A stretch of 37,451 nt of DNA, taken from Patescibacteria group bacterium (lineage in GTDB: Bacteria; Patescibacteriota; Minisyncoccia; Phycocordibacterales; UBA9973). Made by a program: the position numbers and the translations under genes. Under the pieces are notes generated by a model that did no database searches, was not told the DNA's origin, and saw nothing but the letters and a program-made list of their open reading frames with translations. The DNA is taken from positions 27,952-65,402 of the forward strand of contig JAZKCM010000003.1 of assembly GCA_040388095.1 (NCBI GenBank), read 5' to 3'. How positions within the stretch are numbered: the first letter of the stretch is position 1; each line of letters begins with the position of its first letter. Of this stretch, positions 6,124 through 37,053 are shown piece after piece.

Positions 6124-8205
6124 TTAGTTATTGATATATACAGCGTTAGTTCTAAATGCGTCTACAGGTAACAATGTGTTTACCGCAGAACCTAAGCCAA
6201 GACCAGCATCAGTAAATGTCTGGACTGTCTTAAGTTGTACACGGTAGTAAGTGTTAAGTGTAAGAGGACCAGTTAGAGTAACGTTTACATGGAAGTGCTT
6301 AGATGTTCCTGAAGGGAGCATAAAGCCTGTTCCTAGAGCGTTAGCAGTAGCATCGTCACTTATGATAGTGTGTGATGCTGTACTTGTCCAGTCATTTCCA
6401 TATGAACCTGAAGCTGCGTTTTGGAATACGAATGCAACTGCACCAGAACCTGTTGATGTAACAGCTTCTTGTGTTGATTGACCGATGTATGCATCGTTAC
6501 CGAAAGCAGTGATTGTCAATGGAATACTGTATGAAACTGATGTGATATCACCGTTTGAAGCAACAGTTGTTGAAGTAACAACAGAGCCCATAACTGTGTT
6601 AACACCATTTTCACGTAATGTCATAACATTACCAATAGCTGAACCAACACGTAGTGTTGAACTACCTGCTGTTAATTGATCACCATTTTGATCTTGTACA
6701 GAGAAGTCAACAGCGTCTAATACGTCAGCATTAACTACTGAAGCTACGATTGTTGCACCGTCTGAATAAGAACCAGCTGTCTTTGATTTAAGATCAGCTA
6801 CAACACTGAATTCTACTGTAGAACCAGCAGTGATTGTTTGTGATGACAAGTTAACGAATTTGTAAGCAGTGTTAGTAGCACCAGATGTAGTTGCTGTATC
6901 AGTAGAAGCACCAGTTGTGAATGTATAACCGTTTGAACCATCAACTGAATCAACTAAATCAGAACCTCTGTAAAGTTTCAATGTGTTGATGATAGCAGAA
7001 CCGTTAGCACCTACTGTTGTAACCTGAACAGGAACTTTTCTCAAAGTTAAGTCTGTATTTGTAGCTTTAACTGTGAATTTAAGTAATGTTTGTCCGTTTG
7101 TTGCTGAAGTGTTTCCAACTGATACGATAGCAGCAGATGGATTACTTGAAGAAATACCAACTGTAGCTTTGATACCGTTTGAAACAAACTTACCAAACAA
7201 TAATCCTGTTTGTGTAATAGCACTTGAATCATATGTATCATATGAACCGTCTGGTGATGAAGCACTTATACCTCCTGCTGTGAAAGCAACTGTCCAGTTA
7301 GCATTAGTTGCATCAGATGAATCTAATGATCCGTTAGCATTAACAGAAACATAGAAACGGCCGATAGTGTCTTTTGCTATTGGAGCGTTTAAGCCAGAGA
7401 AGTTAAATGTGTATGTATCAGATGATGTAGCACGGTCAGCATCGTTAACTGACATTGTTGCTAACTTTGTAGAACCCATCCATAGTGAAGCACTAGAGAT
7501 GTATTTTCCAAGGTTAGTTGAGCCAGTACCTGCGTTTACAAAAGTAACACGTACGCGGTTAACATTTTGTGAAGACAAGCGAGCTGTTGCACGGAAACCA
7601 GCGACAACTTTGTCTGTTTCTGATTCGTACACTGTTGAAACACGGTTTGTTGAATCAGCAGCAAAATCAGCTAAGTAGCCGTTTGTACCACTAACAACAG
7701 TAGTTGATGTACATGGCTGGCCAGTTGTAACACTGAAACCTGCTGCTGTAGCACAACCTGCTGGTAATACAGCACCTGCACCATTACATGGCATACCAGT
7801 AGTCATACTGAAGCCTGCAGCTGAAGCACAGCCTGCTGGGAAGTTTCCAGAAACGTTTCCGCGAGCTACGAGAGCTGCACGTGACATAGGTCCGAAAACT
7901 CCGTCAGCTGTAAGGCCGAGGTTAGCTTGCATACTCATAACTGCTGCTTTTGTAGCGTTTCCGAAGTATGTTGTTTCCATACCTGGAGATCCTGCACTAA
8001 CACCGTCAACATGGAAACCTTTTTCATTAAGCATCTGTTGTAGACACATAACTTGACTGTTTCTCATGCCATACTTCAAGGTTATAGTGAAAGTTGAACA
8101 ATTAGCTGCGCTAACAGGATTTGCCTTAACAGCAAAAACTCCAACGAACATAACTGCAACAACCATCATTCCAAGAAGGAATTTTGATTTGAATAATTTA
8201 CTCAT
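6124..8205 (-). CDS. Large secreted Ser/Thr/Gly-rich surface (S-layer-like) protein with N-terminal peptidoglycan-binding domain
   Basis: Signal peptide; PG_binding_1-like segment (LKYGMRNSQVMCLQQML...YFGNATKAAV...LTADGVFGPMSRAAL); Cys repeats; long beta-rich body; codon usage visibly skewed as in highly expressed genes. Confidence 0.8.
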   Translation of the reverse strand: MSKLFKSKFLLGMMVVAVMFVGVFAVKANPVSAANCSTFTITLKYGMRNSQVMCLQQMLNEKGFHVDGVSAGSPGMETTYFGNATKAAVMSMQANLGLTADGVFGPMSRAALVARGNVSGNFPAGCASAAGFSMTTGMPCNGAGAVLPAGCATAAGFSVTTGQPCTSTTVVSGTNGYLADFAADSTNRVSTVYESETDKVVAGFRATARLSSQNVNRVRVTFVNAGTGSTNLGKYISSASLWMGSTKLATMSVNDADRATSSDTYTFNFSGLNAPIAKDTIGRFYVSVNANGSLDSSDATNANWTVAFTAGGISASSPDGSYDTYDSSAITQTGLLFGKFVSNGIKATVGISSSNPSAAIVSVGNTSATNGQTLLKFTVKATNTDLTLRKVPVQVTTVGANGSAIINTLKLYRGSDLVDSVDGSNGYTFTTGASTDTATTSGATNTAYKFVNLSSQTITAGSTVEFSVVADLKSKTAGSYSDGATIVASVVNADVLDAVDFSVQDQNGDQLTAGSSTLRVGSAIGNVMTLRENGVNTVMGSVVTSTTVASNGDITSVSYSIPLTITAFGNDAYIGQSTQEAVTSTGSGAVAFVFQNAASGSYGNDWTSTASHTIISDDATANALGTGFMLPSGTSKHFHVNVTLTGPLTLNTYYRVQLKTVQTFTDAGLGLGSAVNTLLPVDAFRTNAVYINN
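7711..7842 (-). repeat. Two tandem Cys-bracketed peptide repeats (75-bp period)
   Basis: FPAGCASAAGFSMTTGMPC (7842-7786) and LPAGCATAAGFSVTTGQPC (7767-7711). Confidence 0.85.
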
Positions 8206-8596
8206 AAAGTTATTTTTAATTTCTGCTCAGTAACTTTTTATTTTTAATTTATAAAAATTACTAATCAGGTTCGTGCAATCATTAATTAGTTTCGACAAAA
8301 CTAAGAACTGCACAATTTTTCTATCACTACTTTTTGTCAGCTTTTTAACGAAGACAATAAACTAGTGGACAGATATAAACGAAAACATTTCTATCTTACG
8401 ACAGACCCGCTTTTTAAAGGCGGAGAAAACTAAACATTTTTCTTACAGGATTTATTAAATTCTGTAAAAATTACTATTTAATTTTCAATGATCTTTCCTT
8501 GTTTCTACTTGAGATTCTTTCGACAAAATCTCCAGCAAAAACAAATACAGATTGTTAATACAATGAAGACGTATAAAATACGCAAATCATATTAAC
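8206..8596 (-). ncRNA. Putative long structured 5' leader RNA
   Basis: No ORF listed in the track. About 8 consecutive hairpins (8554-8596, 8499-8544, 8443-8467, 8407-8423, 8371-8396, 8325-8367, 8273-8313, 8223-8268) start right after a sigma70 promoter. Confidence 0.6.
8482..8493 (-). promoter_or_regulatory. boxA-like antitermination sequence
   Basis: Minus strand GATCATTGAAAA, unpaired, 5 nt after a long hairpin; resembles rrn boxA (GWTCTTTGAAAA type). Confidence 0.45.
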
Positions 8597-8602
8597 TTTT
8601 TT

Positions 8603-8631
8603 ATTATAATCCCTACTCCATAAGAGAGCAA
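8603..8631 (-). promoter_or_regulatory. Sigma70-type promoter P2 of the surface-protein gene
   Basis: TTGCTC (8631-8626), 17-bp spacer, TATAAT (8608-8603). Confidence 0.7.
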
Positions 8632-8638
8632 AATTATA

Positions 8639-8647
8639 TGTGGATAA
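8639..8647 (-). promoter_or_regulatory. Perfect DnaA box
   Basis: Plus strand TGTGGATAA equals TTATCCACA on the minus strand; lies between the two promoters. Confidence 0.6.
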
Positions 8648-8678
8648 CTTGAGATTTTGGCTCAAATTCCACTCCTTT

Positions 8679-8707
8679 ATACTAGCAAATTTTTGTATAA
8701 AAAGCAA
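8679..8707 (-). promoter_or_regulatory. Sigma70-type promoter P1 (extended -10)
   Basis: TTGCTT (8707-8702), 17-bp spacer, TGcTAGTAT (hexamer 8684-8679). Confidence 0.55.
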
Positions 8708-8800
8708 TACATATACTCCCCTACCCTATCGATATGTATAGTCCCTGTGTTCTAAGATATATAAACAAATAGACTACATTTATAGGAGTAAAGTATAGAT

Positions 8801-9586
8801 CTATTTCAGAGAGTATTTAGACCATCTTTTCTCGCCAATTTTATTAAGGACATTATCCTTGATCATAGCGATCAATTCTCTTTGGAGAGTCTTTTCACTA
8901 CAGGATTTTAGAACTCCCGTTTTGTTTTGTAGTATGTCCTTTATGGTCGCTTGTTTCATTTCTTTTATTACTTTTACTATCTCAAATCTTCTTTCTTTTT
9001 TTAACATATCAAAACCTTCTGAGTATTGTTTTTGAGAAGTTTTGTCCGATAGAGCTTTCATTAAAGTGCCTCCTTTTTGAAGCCCGATATTTGTACTTTT
9101 CGTATGTCCATTATGATGTCCTTTATAAAATATTTCTTTTCTAGGTAATACTTGTATGTAAGAATTTTGATCTTCTTCTATGAAATAACCATCGATAGAA
9201 ATAGCATTTTCTTGTGGAACAAGTAGAGCATTCTTAAGTTCATAAAATTCACGAAATAAGATATTCTTATTCATCTGAGATATCATCTTCAATGTAGTTG
9301 TAATATCCAAAAAAGACATAATGCTTTCTACTTTAGTCGAAGCAGAAATATTATCATTCTGATCAATGTCTGATATGATTTCGGTTGCCAATGTCCGTAT
9401 CTTATTTCTCATCGGTTCGTTTTTGTCCATTATGTCCGTAACCATATAAACTGCTGTTACAAGCTTATTTGTCTTTTTATATGATATTTTATTGTCCTTA
9501 ATGAGAGACTCTCTTTCTCTGGAAAGAGAGCTAGCAACTTTGTTAGAATTTGAGAAGTCTTTAAGATTTTTATTTTCTCCAAACAT
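8801..9586 (-). CDS. Putative DNA-binding protein: N-terminal four-helix-bundle-like domain, linker, C-terminal winged helix (DeoR-like HTH)
   Basis: C-terminal RRFEIVKVIK..ATIKDI..CSEKTLQRELIAMIKDNVLNKIGEKRWSKYSL fits a wHTH. N-terminal KKTNKLVTAVYMVTDIMDKNEPMRNKIR resembles 23S-IVP/Avd-type bundles. Start at ATG 9586 inferred from the promoter position. Confidence 0.7.
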   Translation of the reverse strand: MFGENKNLKDFSNSNKVASSLSRERESLIKDNKISYKKTNKLVTAVYMVTDIMDKNEPMRNKIRTLATEIISDIDQNDNISASTKVESIMSFLDITTTLKMISQMNKNILFREFYELKNALLVPQENAISIDGYFIEEDQNSYIQVLPRKEIFYKGHHNGHTKSTNIGLQKGGTLMKALSDKTSQKQYSEGFDMLKKERRFEIVKVIKEMKQATIKDILQNKTGVLKSCSEKTLQRELIAMIKDNVLNKIGEKRWSKYSLK

Positions 9587-9611
9587 GCTGTCCATTATAT
9601 ATAACGGACAG
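8843..9611. repeat. Dispersed array of ~14 TGTCYNWWAT-like motifs in the wHTH gene and its promoter
   Basis: Plus-strand copies start at 8935, 9043, 9105, 9117, 9367, 9392, 9424, 9433, 9470, 9493 and 9589. Minus-strand copies lie at 8843-8852, 9309-9318 and 9601-9610. Confidence 0.85.
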
Positions 9612-9622
9612 GAGTAAGTCAA
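9588..9622 (-). promoter_or_regulatory. Promoter with overlapping palindromic operator
   Basis: TTGACT (9622-9617), 17-bp spacer, TATAAT (9599-9594). Palindrome CTGTCCATTATA/TATAACGGACAG (9588-9611, one mismatch) covers the spacer and -10. Confidence 0.85.
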
Positions 9623-9626
9623 ACAA

Positions 9627-9707
9627 AATAATCTTAAAAAGATATTTTCTGAGTGGTCTGGCTGACTTCCTCCGAGGACCCGAGGAAAACATTTTTTTAA
9701 GATTATT
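9627..9707. repeat. 81-bp palindromic element (REP/MITE-like)
   Basis: 23-bp arms with 2 mismatches (9627-9649 / 9685-9707) enclose a GC-rich core GTCTGGCTGA-N11-GACCCGAGGA. Confidence 0.7.
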
Positions 9708-9771
9708 ATATAAATTTACACAATGATGATTCTGCGAATTTAAATTCAAATATGCTAAAATATATGTACCT

Positions 9772-11964
9772 ATGGCAAAAAAAGAAAACAAGAAACAAAA
9801 AAATTCTTCCACAAAAACAGAATCTTTTACAACTCTCAAAACTGAAACGAAACATGGTATCTGGGCCGTCGTTTTTTTTGTTTTAGCACTCTTCTTGATT
9901 CTCTCTTCATTCGGTAGCGCTGGTATCGCCGGCAAGTTTTTCTATCGAATTTTTTCGTACTTACTTGGTGTCGGCTATGCACTCCTCCCAATACTTTTCT
10001 TACTCCTCGGTTACTCATTTGTAAAATCTGAAAAACCAAATATTGGTTTAGGGCGAGGTATCAGTGCAGGACTTTTTTTAGTCTCAAGTCTTGGGCTTTT
10101 TGATATAGCTTCGAAGAATCATGCTGGTGGATTTTTAGGAAAAATAACTGCTATGCCACTCGTCGGACTTTTTGATATTTATGCAAGTATTGTCTTCCTC
10201 GGAGCGCTTCTAATTATTTCACTTTTAATGATGTTTGATGCACGTCCAACACTCCTTCCATACATAGAAAAAATCTTTACAATTTTTAGGAAAAAAACTG
10301 CCGGACTTGCTATCAATAACGACGATGAAATCGAAGCAGAACTTGGCACAGAAAAAGACCCAGAAGAAGAGGAAGAAGTACCTGAAGAAAAACCTCAAAA
10401 AGAAATTAAAAAAGATAAAGTAAAAGAAAAAAAAGAGGAAGAAGAATTGACTCCAAATCCAGCTGGCAAATATGTCTCTCACGCATACGTTCCTCCCCCA
10501 CTTTCTCTTCTCGAAGAAGACAAAGGAAAGCCAAATACTGGCGACATCAAAGCTAATGCAAATATCATCAAAAGAACTCTCCAGAACTTCGGTATTGAAG
10601 TTGAAATGGATGAGATTACAGTCGGCCCGACTGTCACTCGCTATGCCTTGAAGCCTGCAGAAGGTGTAAAACTCTCTCGCATCGTCGGCCTCCAGAGCGA
10701 CCTCGCGCTTGCTCTCGCTGCCCACCCTATCCGTATTGAAGCACCGATCCCAGGAAAATCTCTCGTCGGTATTGAAATTCCAAACAAAGTAAAATCTACA
10801 GTCGGACTCGCGACACTCCTCGCAGATGAGAAATTCCAAAATTCTGCCAAGCCACTCACTGTCGCTCTCGGTCGTGGTATTTCTGGAAAAGCGACATTTG
10901 CAAACTTAGCAAAAATGCCACACGCCCTCATCGCCGGTACGACTGGTTCTGGAAAATCTGTCACTATACACTCAGTCATCACATCGCTTCTATATAGAAA
11001 TGGCCCAGACGACCTCAAATTTATTATGGTTGACCCAAAGAGAGTCGAGCTCACACTATATAACAAGATTCCTCACCTACTCACTCCTGTCATAACTGAC
11101 GCAAAGAAATCAATTCTCGCACTCAAATGGGCTGCAAAAGAAATGGATCGCAGGTATGACATCTTGCAGGAAGTATCAGTACGCGATATCGGCTCATATC
11201 ACGAAAGTTTTGCTGGTAAGATGAAAAAAGTCGTAAACGAAGCTGGAGAAAAAGTTGAAAAAGAAAATGAACGTATGCCATATATCGTCATTATCATCGA
11301 CGAACTTGCAGATATTATGACTGCATATCCAAGAGAATTAGAATCAGCGATCGTCCGCCTCGCACAAATGTCTCGAGCAGTTGGAATACATATCATCCTC
11401 TCCACTCAACGCCCTGAAGTCAATGTTATTACTGGACTCATTAAAGCCAACATTCCTGCCCGCGTCGCACTCAAAGTGTCTTCCGGTATCGATTCCCGTA
11501 CAATTCTCGATGCGACAGGTGCAGAAAAGCTCCTTGGAGCTGGAGATATGCTTTATTCTTCAGGCGAAGCTCAGCCAGAACGTCTCCAAAGTGCCTTTAT
11601 TTCAGAAGGCGAAGTGAAGAAAGTCGTAAAATACCTTGCAGAAAGTTATGCAGATGAGATTACAGCTGAAATTTCTCTTTCAAATGAGAGTATTTCCCGA
11701 GACAAGAGCATATTTGAATCCAATTTGGACGAAGAAGACAGCGAAGAAGATGAAATGTACGAGGAAGCGAGAAGTGTTATAATAGAAGCAGGTAAAGCAA
11801 GTACTTCGTACCTCCAAAGAAAACTCGGTCTCGGTTATGCACGAGCTGCACGCTTGATCGATATGCTCGAAGAACGTGGTGTCGTCGGACCTGGAAGCGG
11901 ATCAAAACCAAGAGAAGTATTAGAAAAAATCGACCGAGATGAAAACGGTAATAACGTAATATAA
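9772..11964 (+). CDS. ftsK: DNA translocase FtsK/SpoIIIE
   Basis: N-terminal transmembrane helices, GPTVTRY, RIEAPIPGK, Walker A GTTGSGKS, IIDELAD, gamma domain STSYLQRKLGLGYARAARLID. Confidence 0.97.
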   Translation: MAKKENKKQKNSSTKTESFTTLKTETKHGIWAVVFFVLALFLILSSFGSAGIAGKFFYRIFSYLLGVGYALLPILFLLLGYSFVKSEKPNIGLGRGISAGLFLVSSLGLFDIASKNHAGGFLGKITAMPLVGLFDIYASIVFLGALLIISLLMMFDARPTLLPYIEKIFTIFRKKTAGLAINNDDEIEAELGTEKDPEEEEEVPEEKPQKEIKKDKVKEKKEEEELTPNPAGKYVSHAYVPPPLSLLEEDKGKPNTGDIKANANIIKRTLQNFGIEVEMDEITVGPTVTRYALKPAEGVKLSRIVGLQSDLALALAAHPIRIEAPIPGKSLVGIEIPNKVKSTVGLATLLADEKFQNSAKPLTVALGRGISGKATFANLAKMPHALIAGTTGSGKSVTIHSVITSLLYRNGPDDLKFIMVDPKRVELTLYNKIPHLLTPVITDAKKSILALKWAAKEMDRRYDILQEVSVRDIGSYHESFAGKMKKVVNEAGEKVEKENERMPYIVIIIDELADIMTAYPRELESAIVRLAQMSRAVGIHIILSTQRPEVNVITGLIKANIPARVALKVSSGIDSRTILDATGAEKLLGAGDMLYSSGEAQPERLQSAFISEGEVKKVVKYLAESYADEITAEISLSNESISRDKSIFESNLDEEDSEEDEMYEEARSVIIEAGKASTSYLQRKLGLGYARAARLIDMLEERGVVGPGSGSKPREVLEKIDRDENGNNVI

Positions 11965-11971
11965 AAAAATA

Positions 11972-12316
11972 ATGAACCAAGATGCAAAAAAAATAATAAA
12001 AATTTCTTCCCTCGCATTTTTATTTTTGTTTATTATCTTATATGCCTTCTTTCGATCCAAAGATTTAATCTTTGGCGTCCATATCAAAAATGTAAACATC
12101 GTAGATGGAGTAAAACTTGAAACTAATATCCTTACAGTAACTGGAAATGCAAAAAATGCAGTACTCCTCAGCTTAAATGGTAGAGAAATATCAATAGACC
12201 AAAATGGAAATTGGAATGAGACGATCGTTGTCTTACCTGGTTACAATATTGTAAAAATTAATGCAAAAGATAAATTTGGGCACACAGATGAAAAAAATTA
12301 TAAATTAATGTTGTAA
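11972..12316 (+). CDS. Small membrane-anchored Ig-like (glucodextranase-B-like) protein
   Basis: One N-terminal transmembrane helix, then [16 protein letters not shown]...[16 protein letters not shown]. Confidence 0.65.
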
Positions 12317-12320
12317 AATT

Positions 12321-13364
12321 ATGATAAAAAAAGCAAAAAAGGCAGGTAATAGTGAGACGATGGACAACAGAGCATTGAACGATACGATTAAATCAATCCA
12401 GACAAAATTCGGTGAAGGTGCAATAATGAAACTCGGTGAAAAACCGAAAGTCGATGTCGATGTCATTCCTACTGGTTCACTCGGACTCGATATGGCACTC
12501 GGTATCGGTGGAGTACCTCGTGGAAGAATCATCGAAATATTTGGACCAGAATCTTCTGGTAAGACTACCCTTGCCCTCCACATCGTCGCTGAAGCTCAAA
12601 AGAAAGGCGGTGTCTGCGCATATATCGATGCTGAACATGCTATGGATCCAGTCTATGCGAAAAATCTCGGCGTTAATACTGACGACCTCTTCATCTCTCA
12701 GCCAGATACAGGAGAACAAGGTCTTGAAATCTGTGAATCTCTCGTGCGCTCTGGAAAAATAGACGTTATCGTTATCGACTCTGTTGCAGCACTTACTCCA
12801 AAAGATGAAATCGAGGGAGATATGGGTCAGGCACACGTGGGACGACAAGCACGCCTTATGTCTCACGCACTCCGCAAGCTCACTGCAATCGTTGCCCGTT
12901 CAAAAACTGTCGTTATTTTCATCAACCAAATCCGTATGCAAATCGGTGTGATGTTTGGTAATCCTGAAACAACTCCAGGAGGAAAAGCGCTCAAATTTTA
13001 TACATCAGTGCGTTTTGATATTCGTAGAATCGCTCAAATAAAAAAAGGTGAAGAAGTCGTCGGCGGAAGAACTCGTGTTAAGATCGTCAAAAACAAAGTC
13101 GCTGCTCCATTCAAACAAACTGAATTCGATATCATTTATGGTGAAGGTATTTCACACGAAGGTGAACTTATGGCTCTCGGTGAGAAACTCGGCATCATTG
13201 AAAAATCCGGTGCATCATACTCAATGAAAGATAAAGTAGCAATGGGCCGAGGATATGATGCGACACGCACATGGCTCAAAGAAAATACAAAAGTAGCTAA
13301 AGAAATCAAAAAAGAAATCGAACACCGCTTCGGAGAAATCCAAGTCTCAAGCTCTGGAGAATAA
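12321..13364 (+). CDS. recA: Recombinase RecA
   Basis: [28 protein letters not shown] and GGKALKFY motifs. ATG 12360 is an alternative start. Confidence 0.99.
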
Positions 13365-36114: not shown

Positions 36115-37053
36115 TTAAATTTCTTTTACTAAATCTTCTATTTGATTAAAAACTTCTTGAGCATGAGCATGATCTTTATCATTTAATTTATATTTTTTTA
36201 ACAAGGATCTTAAACTTGAAATCTCATCATTTATGGATTGATTAAATGATGAAATCAAACCTGTAGCTTTTGGATTAACGTTTATTTTTTTACATAATTT
36301 AACAAGAAACTTAGTTCTATCAAGAAAAACTTCAGGATAATGTAATTTATCAATATCCTCCATAATAAGGTCCTTACCATCATTGGTATACGAAAAAGGT
36401 AATGGGATTAAGTGATTTTTATCAGACAATTTATATTCTTTAAAATAGCCATTTTTTAGAGCATCAACTTGTTCCTCTAAAGTAAATAAAAGTGGTTTAT
36501 AAAAATTAACATTTTTTAAAGTATTAATAACATCAGAACTTGCACCAATAAAATCTTCAAGTCTAGCATCAGATTGTTCGTCATCATAATTCATAATGCT
36601 ATCATTTAGTATTTTAATAAAAGTCATAAGAGTATTAGTACTGTTTTTTACATCATATACTTCATTATTCTTTAAAAAATCACAAAACTTTTGTTTGTCT
36701 AAAATAGACAAACCTGTATTTCCATTAGAAAACTGTTCTGCTTTAAAACCAAACTCACTTATTTTATTATTTATATCTAGAAAATTACTATTATATATTT
36801 CATTTTTTTCAGACTTAATTTGATTATTTTGATGGGAAAGTATACTGCGTAATTCTTCAATCTGCTTAGCATCATGACCTTTCATTGTTAGATCGTTTTC
36901 AGAATTAGAACTTAAACTCTCAGATAAATGATCAGGGGCATTTGTATTAGCAATAAAAAGATTAAATTCTTCACAAGCTTTGTGTGCTAATAAAATATCT
37001 TCATGGTTCTCATGATCACTTGGTGTTTTATTGAAATTAGATTCACTAAACAT
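36115..37053 (-). CDS. Hypothetical protein (very AT-rich)
   Basis: 312-aa ORF directly after gyrB; no motif recognised. Confidence 0.7.
   Translation of the reverse strand: MFSESNFNKTPSDHENHEDILLAHKACEEFNLFIANTNAPDHLSESLSSNSENDLTMKGHDAKQIEELRSILSHQNNQIKSEKNEIYNSNFLDINNKISEFGFKAEQFSNGNTGLSILDKQKFCDFLKNNEVYDVKNSTNTLMTFIKILNDSIMNYDDEQSDARLEDFIGASSDVINTLKNVNFYKPLLFTLEEQVDALKNGYFKEYKLSDKNHLIPLPFSYTNDGKDLIMEDIDKLHYPEVFLDRTKFLVKLCKKINVNPKATGLISSFNQSINDEISSLRSLLKKYKLNDKDHAHAQEVFNQIEDLVKEI

Follow-up and report, generated by a model that had tools for sequence, protein, structure and literature searches.

A coding sequence crowded with a 9-bp site: an intragenic array in a putative winged-helix gene of Patescibacteria and a second cluster at a probable replication origin

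The stretch of DNA analysed here (the window, 37,451 nucleotides of contig JAZKCM010000003.1 from assembly GCA_040388095.1, a Patescibacteria group bacterium) carries on its minus strand a gene whose coding sequence is densely occupied by copies of one short motif. The whole array is hosted by an open reading frame (ORF) at 8801..9622, and the gene proper is predicted to encode a protein made up of an N-terminal helical bundle, a linker and a C-terminal winged helix. An earlier note on this DNA, made by a model from the letters of the window, had reported about 14 copies of TGTCYNWWAT here and proposed that an oligomeric protein coats, wraps or loops its own gene. The features of the locus are collected in Table 1.

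Table 1. Coordinates of the gene, its promoter, the sites of the array and the elements past its 3' end (positions in the window)
Feature	Position	Strand	Remarks
Coding sequence, predicted bundle-linker-winged-helix protein	8801..9586	minus	261 aa from MFGENK
Sigma-70-type promoter TTGACT-17-TATAAT	9594..9622	minus	11/12 matches; top score in 8100-9900
Palindromic operator (predicted)	9589..9610		TGTCCATTA + 4-bp spacer TATA + TAACGGACA
Site TGTCCTTAA	9493..9501	plus	intragenic
Two abutting sites, TGTCCATTA + TGTCCGTAA	9424..9441	plus	encode conserved peptide (V)TDIMD(K)
TGTCC core, imperfect flank	9392..9396	plus	reads IRT in the protein
Variant site TGTCTGATA	9367..9375	plus	AGACA type
Tandem pair TGTCCATTA / TGTCCTTTA	9105..9125	plus	12 bp apart; encodes YKGHHNGH
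Site TGTCCGATA	9043..9051	plus	intragenic
Site TGTCCTTTA	8935..8943	plus	intragenic
Opposite-orientation site TTAAGGACA	8844..8852	plus	near gene 3' end; column holds a site in 12/19 orthologues
Perfect TTATCCACA box	8647..8639	minus	7 nt upstream of TTGCTC
Promoter past the box, TTGCTC-17-TATAAT	8631..8626 (TTGCTC), 8608..8603 (TATAAT)	minus	serves downstream 693-aa surface/peptidoglycan-binding gene

The positions given for individual copies in the earlier note are correct, namely TGTCCTTTAT at 8935 and 9117, TGTCCATTAT at 9105, 9424 and 9589, TGTCCTTAAT at 9493 and on the minus strand at 8843-8852, and TGTCCGTTAT on the minus strand at 9601-9610, and the same is true of the 12-bp tandem at 9105/9117 and the palindrome at 9589-9610. 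The figure of about 14 was an overcount: the window contains 13 exact matches to TGTCYNWWAT, nine of which lie in 8843-9610, and in shuffles the window as a whole had 4.46 on average and never more than 9. The count of eleven TGTCC cores is exact. This core occurs 41 times in the window, which is near chance overall, and 11 of the 41 fall in 8848-9610, where the density of the window predicts approximately 0.9. A refined 9-mer, TGTCYDWWA, has 11 sites in 8844-9610, of which the coding sequence holds nine and the promoter two. The sites occupy all three frames and both strands, as had been described, and the readings of particular copies as IKD, YKGH and IRT agree with the translation.

In the assembly that was searched (450 kb in 5 contigs, 83.5% complete), the gene holds 8 of the 31 TGTCCNWWAT and 11 of the 491 TGTCC, and all the top-ranked 800-bp windows are the winged-helix gene, under every variant of the motif. 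Outside the gene there is no overall enrichment of the 9-mer, with 42 sites assembly-wide versus approximately 49 expected. The earlier description of other copies as isolated holds for the window, where four further TGTCYNWWAT matches lie outside the gene, but not for the genome, which has a second cluster on another contig; likewise, the gene is the dominant cluster of the assembly but not the sole one. A regulon search for TGTCY-N6-16-RGACA pairs in the assembly found the operator flanks and arrangement at the gene's own promoter only. Across loci of the same genus the sites begin at the promoter and end some 50 bp short of the stop codon, and the part of the intergenic region nearest to the divergently transcribed ftsK contains none.

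Pooling of 226 core sites from 19 same-genus orthologues refined the site to TWWH-RG-ACA, the flanks of which are identical in all three frames and both orientations. T is found at -4 in 90% of sites in the arrays, compared with 32% at the other 479 GGACA of the genome; A or T occupies -3 and -2, and G is never found at -1. The central dinucleotide was examined by scanning TWWH-NN-ACA for all sixteen NN over 16.4 kb of genes and 53.7 kb of flanks from the 19 orthologues: GG gave 181 matches in the genes and 5 in the flanks, AG gave 48 and 5, the DnaA-box type CC gave 0 and 26, and each of the other 13 dinucleotides gave at most 6 in the genes and 0-13 in the flanks. The DnaA box has the consensus TTWTNCACA, from which TWWHRGACA is distinct, albeit one base away (C6 to G), and boxes of the TTATCCACA type do not form the content of the array, the 19 genes holding 229 TWWH[GA]GACA and 0 TWWHCCACA. 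Some lineages favour AAGACA over AGGACA, with an unchanged helix EKT[LI]QRE in the protein. Within the arrays the sites follow no regular spacing (median 45 bp) or common orientation, with 142 sense and 84 antisense cores.

The constraint acts on the DNA and not on the protein, a proposal of the earlier note that is borne out by synonymous nulls, by the frame-independent flanks, by the dinucleotide scan and by the density of sites in variable columns. When the protein was fixed and codons were drawn by genome usage, the nine observed sites compared with a mean of 1.67 and a maximum of 7, so that 0 of 5000 draws reached nine and the enrichment survives the codon-shuffled null that might have removed it. 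Shuffling of codons within the gene is a conservative null, as the gene's own skewed codon pool is retained; here 13 of the 19 genus loci had counts that were reached by 0 of 500 shuffles, and across the 27 loci tested 234 cores were observed versus 81 expected. The synonymous null itself lies far above the genome background, and therefore the amino-acid sequence too is bent toward the motif. Examples are the near-invariant N-terminal NLKD, the repeated [IL]KD of the variable N-terminus and the peptide TDIMDK, written ACG GAC ATA ATG GAC A, while in one alignment column the residue switches between H and Q and GGACAN is preserved.

The alignment columns of the two abutting sites at 9424..9441 carry a site in 13/19 and 9/19 orthologues. 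Sites are densest in conserved protein columns, at 18/kb, and reach 9.8/kb in the variable ones and 9.7/kb where a lineage has insertions of its own. Sites fall in 73 distinct columns, about nine of which are common to at least 8 genomes, most of the others being singletons, a pattern that, as read from the alignment, is one of turnover under selection for site number.

The array is retained in 15/15 loci of the genus (9-16 sites versus 0.06-0.73 expected) and in 8/9 loci from other families of the order, which have 3-9 sites, as the earlier idea of a binding array would lead one to expect of orthologues. The sole homologue at class level has 0 sites and a differing recognition helix (RRTLIRD). 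Relatives of the protein number 872 at E <= 1e-3 among 1185 candidates from a 90%-clustered collection, and 2905 cluster representatives in an exhaustive search; where names are given they are ‘hypothetical’ in all cases except one, and the named organisms are Patescibacteria. When 301 genomes were drawn evenly from the phylum, 9 matched, of which 6 belong to the order, including the window's own genome. The gene was detected in 36 of 41 related genomes; a profile search of the remaining five was also empty, and these absences are uninformative because three of them have ftsK at the edge of a contig and the other two gave no ftsK either. Separately, a near-full-length homologue (E = 1e-96) occurs at G112:C96:4192-5115, in a 2.1-Mb, 150-contig genome of a different family, and this contig may be mis-binned.

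The earlier note had also placed a palindrome of the motif over the gene's promoter, and it does cover the spacer and -10 element of TTGACT-17-TATAAT, together with the likely start site. The -10 lies at 9599-9594 and the ATG at 9586 comes 7 nt after it; this ATG, as the first one downstream, is therefore the real start. An in-frame ATG at 9595 and a TTG at 9622, upstream of the chosen start, both fall within the promoter, and the majority of homologues begin with MF or ML. Judged from this arrangement, the mRNA is probably leaderless. The palindrome is the sole full one of its kind in the assembly, and the promoters of orthologues are built alike, with a TTGC-type -35, a spacer that contains the left half-site, a TATAAT joined directly to the right half-site, and then the ATG. 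Across the 19 genus loci, 15 pairs of neighbouring sites are of this tight inverted kind, with a centre distance of 11 or 13 bp. Such a pair over the -10 is the classic mark of a dimeric autorepressor, and the inverted-repeat operator over the own promoter that is typical of winged-helix transcription factors is found here. RNA contigs from four metatranscriptome runs, 90-95% alike to the window, match only 8200-8650 and a 36-base piece at 9545-9580 with unlike flanks, coverage so sparse that it says nothing either way on expression of the winged-helix gene. In the region between the divergent genes, a hairpin-like GC-rich stretch followed by a T-run (9640-9705) folds no better than shuffles (z = 0.28), and a search of Rfam over 7800-10000 gave chance-level matches only.

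No family in Pfam, NCBIfam or PHROGs is found above threshold for the protein, and a profile search of PDB sequences gave nothing meaningful (best E-value 0.13). The winged helix claimed for it in the earlier note is backed by sub-threshold evidence and not by any Pfam family above threshold. Over the C-terminal ~70 residues of 42 members, sub-threshold hits were obtained to the winged-helix families FUR (5/42) and HTH_12 (3/42) and to the winged helices of Rok, MCM_C and Penicillinase_R (one each), and HTH_DeoR is present in 14-87% of the members of neighbouring Atlas clusters. The C-terminal part, in which the invariant helix EKT[LI]QRE and the wing GEKRWS lie, looks like a winged helix. The claim of an Avd/23S-IVP bundle stands for predicted fold and not for a Pfam match in sequence. 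Residues 28-130 align to 23S_rRNA_IVP/bAvd clusters at a template-modelling (TM) score of 0.79-0.85, both sides being predicted models, and one row of the fold comparison reaches the bar for naming; between these predicted models, the N-terminal part resembles a four-helix bundle of the bAvd/23S-IVP fold type. Avd is described in PMC6182149 as a pentameric, positively charged barrel. Longer or fused forms of the protein were not found among its relatives, which is weak evidence, and Pfam gave no match to ParB_N in it; a separate ParB_N gene is present on contig C1.

A second, smaller cluster of the 9-mer lies at a divergent locus of a yraN-like gene, tRNA genes and the gene for the CCA-adding enzyme, cca (seen in G019, in G006 and on contig C2 of the own genome). 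The core of this cluster is a 36-bp composite, in which TGTCCTTTA is followed by three head-to-tail DnaA-like boxes, the last of them a perfect TTATCCACA, and the box trio sits between the yraN-like gene and tRNA-Arg, tRNA-Gly and cca. The composite is found in 28 of 41 relatives, compared with 1 match for the reversed control pattern. Around it are further sites in a fixed layout, among them, in 3 of 4 contigs, two inverted sites at a distance of 71 bp, and the <=1 kb of sequence surrounding the composite contains 7-11 sites versus 0.4-0.7 expected in 4 of 4 contigs (the locus lies at G000:C2:36,800-37,850, G006:C20:247.3-248.3 kb and G015:C1 ~187 kb).

This position coincides with, or lies close to, the minimum of cumulative GC skew in G000 C2 (minimum at 37-38 kb, composite at 36.9 kb), G006 (247-248 kb and 247.4 kb) and G015 (188-190 kb and 187.3 kb), the distance being within 3 kb in all three. 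In G034, which belongs to another family, a broad trough of the curve encloses the cluster together with two perfect boxes. Coding-strand bias switches at the same locus, with 55+/142- to the left and 42+/16- to the right in G006. On these features of the sequence, the yraN-like/tRNA/cca locus is the probable oriC of the lineage. In 5 genomes of about 0.6-0.8 Mb, a distance of 64-92 kb separates the composite from the winged-helix gene. Near dnaA no TWWHGGACA site was found, though canonical boxes cluster there. The chromosome-related or titration role that had been raised among several possibilities is strengthened as a candidate reading: this second cluster of the same site brackets DnaA boxes at the probable oriC. 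Beside the start of the yraN-like gene there is also a 14-bp palindrome, GTTTCACGTGAAAC or a near copy of it, in 4 of 4 contigs (G000:C2 ~36,720-36,735, G006, G013 and G015), which may be the site of another regulator.

The reading that we prefer, to which we give a probability of about one half, is that the protein is a multivalent self-repressor which acts on the array in its own gene and also binds the cluster at the origin. It would be a DNA-binding protein specific to the order, with an N-terminal four-helix bundle, a variable linker and a C-terminal winged helix that recognises the 9-bp half-site TWWH-RG-ACA. Occupation of the two inverted half-sites over its own promoter would block initiation of transcription, and another 8-14 half-sites in the coding sequence, irregularly spaced and in both orientations, would be filled by further winged-helix domains of the oligomer. 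The multivalent nucleoprotein complex formed on the gene may deepen repression, via cooperativity or a block to elongation, and would double as a protein sink of high capacity. The 7-11 sites that bracket the DnaA-box array at the probable origin would be occupied by this protein too, and the array in its own gene would set the free concentration of an origin-binding factor. A flexible linker on an oligomeric hub is favoured over a rigid dimer because spacing is irregular and orientation mixed; for the same reason, irregular and mixed sites being suited to domains tethered to a hub, we favour a coating complex, sharper self-repression and the soaking up of protein as its likely effects. What the sequences show is the array, the selection on its DNA, its conservation, its overlap with the promoter and the further cluster at the skew minimum; which protein binds, in what oligomeric state, whether it represses and whether it has a part in replication or chromosome structure is inferred.

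Several observations weigh against this reading. No member of the 42 has a winged-helix Pfam family above the gathering score, 0/42 match 23S_rRNA_IVP or bAvd (PF05635 / PF22296) in Pfam at E <= 0.1, and the fold was read from the Atlas's own model, for which the predicted local distance difference test (pLDDT) score of the whole protein is 0.66. Lineages rich in GGACA and lineages rich in AGACA share one helix, and motif and helix are both near-invariant across the order. The motif is one position off the DnaA-box consensus and adjoins DnaA boxes, so that another binder is possible, and nothing in the proposal explains why sites are placed in coding rather than flanking sequence. At the second locus, the skew minimum of G013 is 14 kb from the cluster on a flat curve, the largest cluster of canonical DnaA boxes is found beside dnaA, 30-38 kb from the skew minimum, and the excess of sites inside cca is modest (4 versus 1.25 under the synonymous null, reached by 35 of 2000 shuffles). 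The RNA contigs of related strains, finally, cover just the 5' region of the neighbouring gene, not the winged-helix gene.

The protein could instead be an ordinary local transcription factor, which represses itself with the help of auxiliary operators or roadblocks and also controls the divergent yraN-like/tRNA/cca genes, the position of the latter at the skew minimum being incidental and replication and chromosome structure having no part in it. This is possible, if on the unlikely side: the palindrome over the gene's own promoter, the placing of the second cluster in a divergent promoter region that holds tRNA genes and the lack of enrichment elsewhere are what such a factor would show, and an intragenic roadblock site is documented for C.Kpn2I (PMC6237814). 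However, a pair of targets of which one is the gene itself would be an odd thing to retain across an order of streamlined genomes, 9-16 sites kept by turnover are far above the roadblock precedents, and the sites at the second locus bracket, in a fixed layout, three head-to-tail DnaA-like boxes and not obvious promoters. A structural element of the chromosome, akin to a centromere or an organiser of the origin domain, in which the oligomer covers both its own gene and the origin cluster, bridging or anchoring the two, and autoregulation is a by-product, seems doubtful to us. The two dense clusters per genome, both origin-proximal, with 64-92 kb between gene and composite in the 5 genomes, would suit it, as would a fold from a family known to form pentamers, an irregular spacing compatible with flexible multivalent binding and the ftsK neighbourhood, fixed in 20/20 loci; the genome has a ParB of its own, however, a partner ATPase or membrane anchor is not evident, the search for longer or fused forms was negative (again weak evidence) and the bridging is pure inference. 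The coding sequence might alternatively be a chromosomal device in its own right, whereby a pentameric protein with several winged helices binds the origin beside DnaA and is buffered or bridged by the 9-16-site reservoir of its own gene 64-92 kb away, which we put forward as a speculative and on balance unlikely idea. If true, it would amount to datA-like titration or an origin-domain element in which the reservoir is the titrated factor's own gene, and selection on the DNA would dictate part of the protein, namely the KD repeats, the H/Q alternation and the linker insertions.

That some other protein is the binder, for example DnaA on a variant box or a competitor of DnaA, with the winged-helix gene a mere host, is improbable. 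The closeness of TWWHRGACA to the DnaA-box consensus (C6 to G), the boxes that adjoin the sites at the second locus and the perfect box past the gene all point that way, but the 19 genes hold 229 RG sites and none of the CC version, no TWWHGGACA lies near dnaA, the home of canonical boxes, the closely set inverted pair that overlies the promoter of the host gene is characteristic of a dimeric autoregulator, and the downstream box belongs to another promoter. An iteron-type origin or a terminus within the gene, modelled on lambda O or RepA_N, would draw on the array in the gene of its presumed binder and the DnaA box close by. We hold this to be very improbable, as regular direct repeats are lacking, the GC-skew curves of G000 C3, G006 and G015 run monotonically through the gene, with no inflection at the locus such as the earlier note had proposed to look for, and the gene is a syntenic chromosomal one in 20/20 loci, with the DnaA box being a promoter-upstream element of the next gene. 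The last alternative, that the array is a by-product of KD, MD and GH residues or of chance, draws on the coincidence of several sites with conserved peptides such as TDIMDK and TITDIK and on a synonymous null that itself exceeds the background; it is refuted by the synonymous nulls (0/5000 and 0/500 reaching the observed counts), and the T at -4 retained in all frames and orientations, the sites equally dense in insertions and variable columns and the GGACAN kept by the H/Q column also speak against it.

Among known systems, the single intragenic roadblock site of C.Kpn2I is the nearest documented principle. The report on this regulator (PMC6237814) describes one binding site in the regulator's own coding region, which acts as a roadblock to elongation and serves autoregulation, and LacI at O3 is described in PMC3711431 as autoregulating through a roadblock at a site within or behind its own coding region. 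The likeness lies in a site, here predicted, that a regulator has within its own gene for negative feedback; nine of the 9-mers lie in the coding sequence, and the protein is their presumed binder. The two systems have one site each, whereas here there are 9-16 half-sites and a promoter operator with turnover across the order, and, unlike in either, the sites shape the amino-acid sequence and recur as a second cluster at the probable origin. In ori-lambda, within the lambda O gene, and in RepA_N replicons, repeats bound by the initiator lie inside the initiator gene, so that the embedding of an array for the presumed product in that product's coding sequence is shared; unlike those, the present locus has no regular direct repeats, no skew switch and no mobile replicon, and the organism has DnaA and a separate probable oriC.

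Loci that titrate DnaA, such as datA of Escherichia coli and the DnaA-box clusters of Bacillus subtilis, and origin-binding regulators such as Spo0A, CtrA and SeqA resemble the present system in that an origin-proximal, high-capacity cluster would serve a factor with sites at oriC abutting DnaA boxes. Unlike in the datA and box-cluster cases, the factor here appears not to be DnaA (0 CC-type boxes), and the reservoir would be the factor's own coding sequence. In ParB-parS systems parS often lies inside parB/spo0J, near the origin, and here too sites lie within the presumed binder's gene and in the origin-proximal region of the chromosome; the protein, however, lacks ParB_N, the genome has a separate ParB, and the sites are 9-bp half-sites as opposed to a 16-bp palindrome. 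The winged-helix dimer RTP of B. subtilis, which binds Ter, autoregulates through a site next to its own gene. It shares with the present case a winged-helix protein, the strongest sites at its own gene and a possible link to replication, but here the locus is away from the terminus, numerous sites in either orientation lie inside the gene, and there is no sign of fork arrest. Proteins of the bAvd and 23S rRNA IVP families (PF22296, PF05635) share the predicted fold of residues 28-130; unlike them, the bundle here is fused to a linker and a winged helix, and in the 20 loci neither the reverse transcriptase of a diversity-generating retroelement (DGR) nor an rRNA intervening-sequence context was seen.

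A literature search found no description of this protein family, its motif, Patescibacteria origins or an origin-associated factor or oriC in the group. If the protein binds the sites, the gene would be an unusually clear natural case of dual coding, in which the sequence of a regulator is shaped by a dozen of its own sites across an order of uncultured, genome-reduced bacteria. The analysis also provides a first candidate origin-associated factor for the Patescibacteria group, together with a candidate oriC, namely the three DnaA-like boxes found where skew is minimal, at 30-38 kb from dnaA. For annotation there is a caution, as apparent protein conservation in the family, such as NLKD and GH/GQ, may partly be conservation of DNA. 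The system is small and self-contained, so that E. coli can serve as the test host with no need to culture the organism itself, with TAAAGGACA (the site type) and TAAAAGACA as named candidate targets versus TTATCCACA (the DnaA box).

The neighbourhood of the gene is highly conserved. In 20/20 loci it is divergent from ftsK, with recA beyond; a 114-aa membrane ORF between ftsK and recA is matched in 19/20 loci and the downstream gene for a surface/peptidoglycan-binding protein in 17/20. The adjacent DnaA box had been mentioned in the earlier note as a possible mark of an origin, a suggestion that did not hold up: a TTATCCACA box lies 60-270 bp past the stop codon, in the same orientation, in 18/20 loci counting L050, it is always a few bases upstream of the conserved TTGC...-17-TATAAT promoter of the downstream gene, and box and promoter are kept across the order. 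From its sequence context, then, the downstream box is best described as a promoter-upstream element and not an origin mark. Two further readings of the locus were abandoned. One made the protein an SOS-type regulator of the divergently transcribed ftsK-recA operon, but no LexA DNA-binding domain was found in the 83.5%-complete assembly and the genus has no ftsK-proximal sites; the other, an FtsK-orienting (KOPS-like) function, is ruled out by the clustered distribution of the motif, which is not genome-wide.

Some minor observations concern the surrounding DNA. The block of ftsK, the 114-aa ORF and recA (9772-13364 and the orthologous loci) is head-on to replication as inferred from skew, while the winged-helix gene is co-directional with it. 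Between the promoter that follows the DnaA box and the 693-aa gene, a stretch of about 400 nt (8200-8650) is untranslated and has no Rfam match; four metatranscriptome runs from four studies cover it at 90-95% likeness, and it looks like a long conserved 5' leader. The assemblies of G010, G011, G029, G008, G003, G017, G006 and G009 often break at the orthologous locus, either just upstream of ftsK or about 1.1 kb past the 3' end of the winged-helix gene, inside or before the surface-protein gene, and these recurrent contig breaks suggest strain-level variability at the locus.

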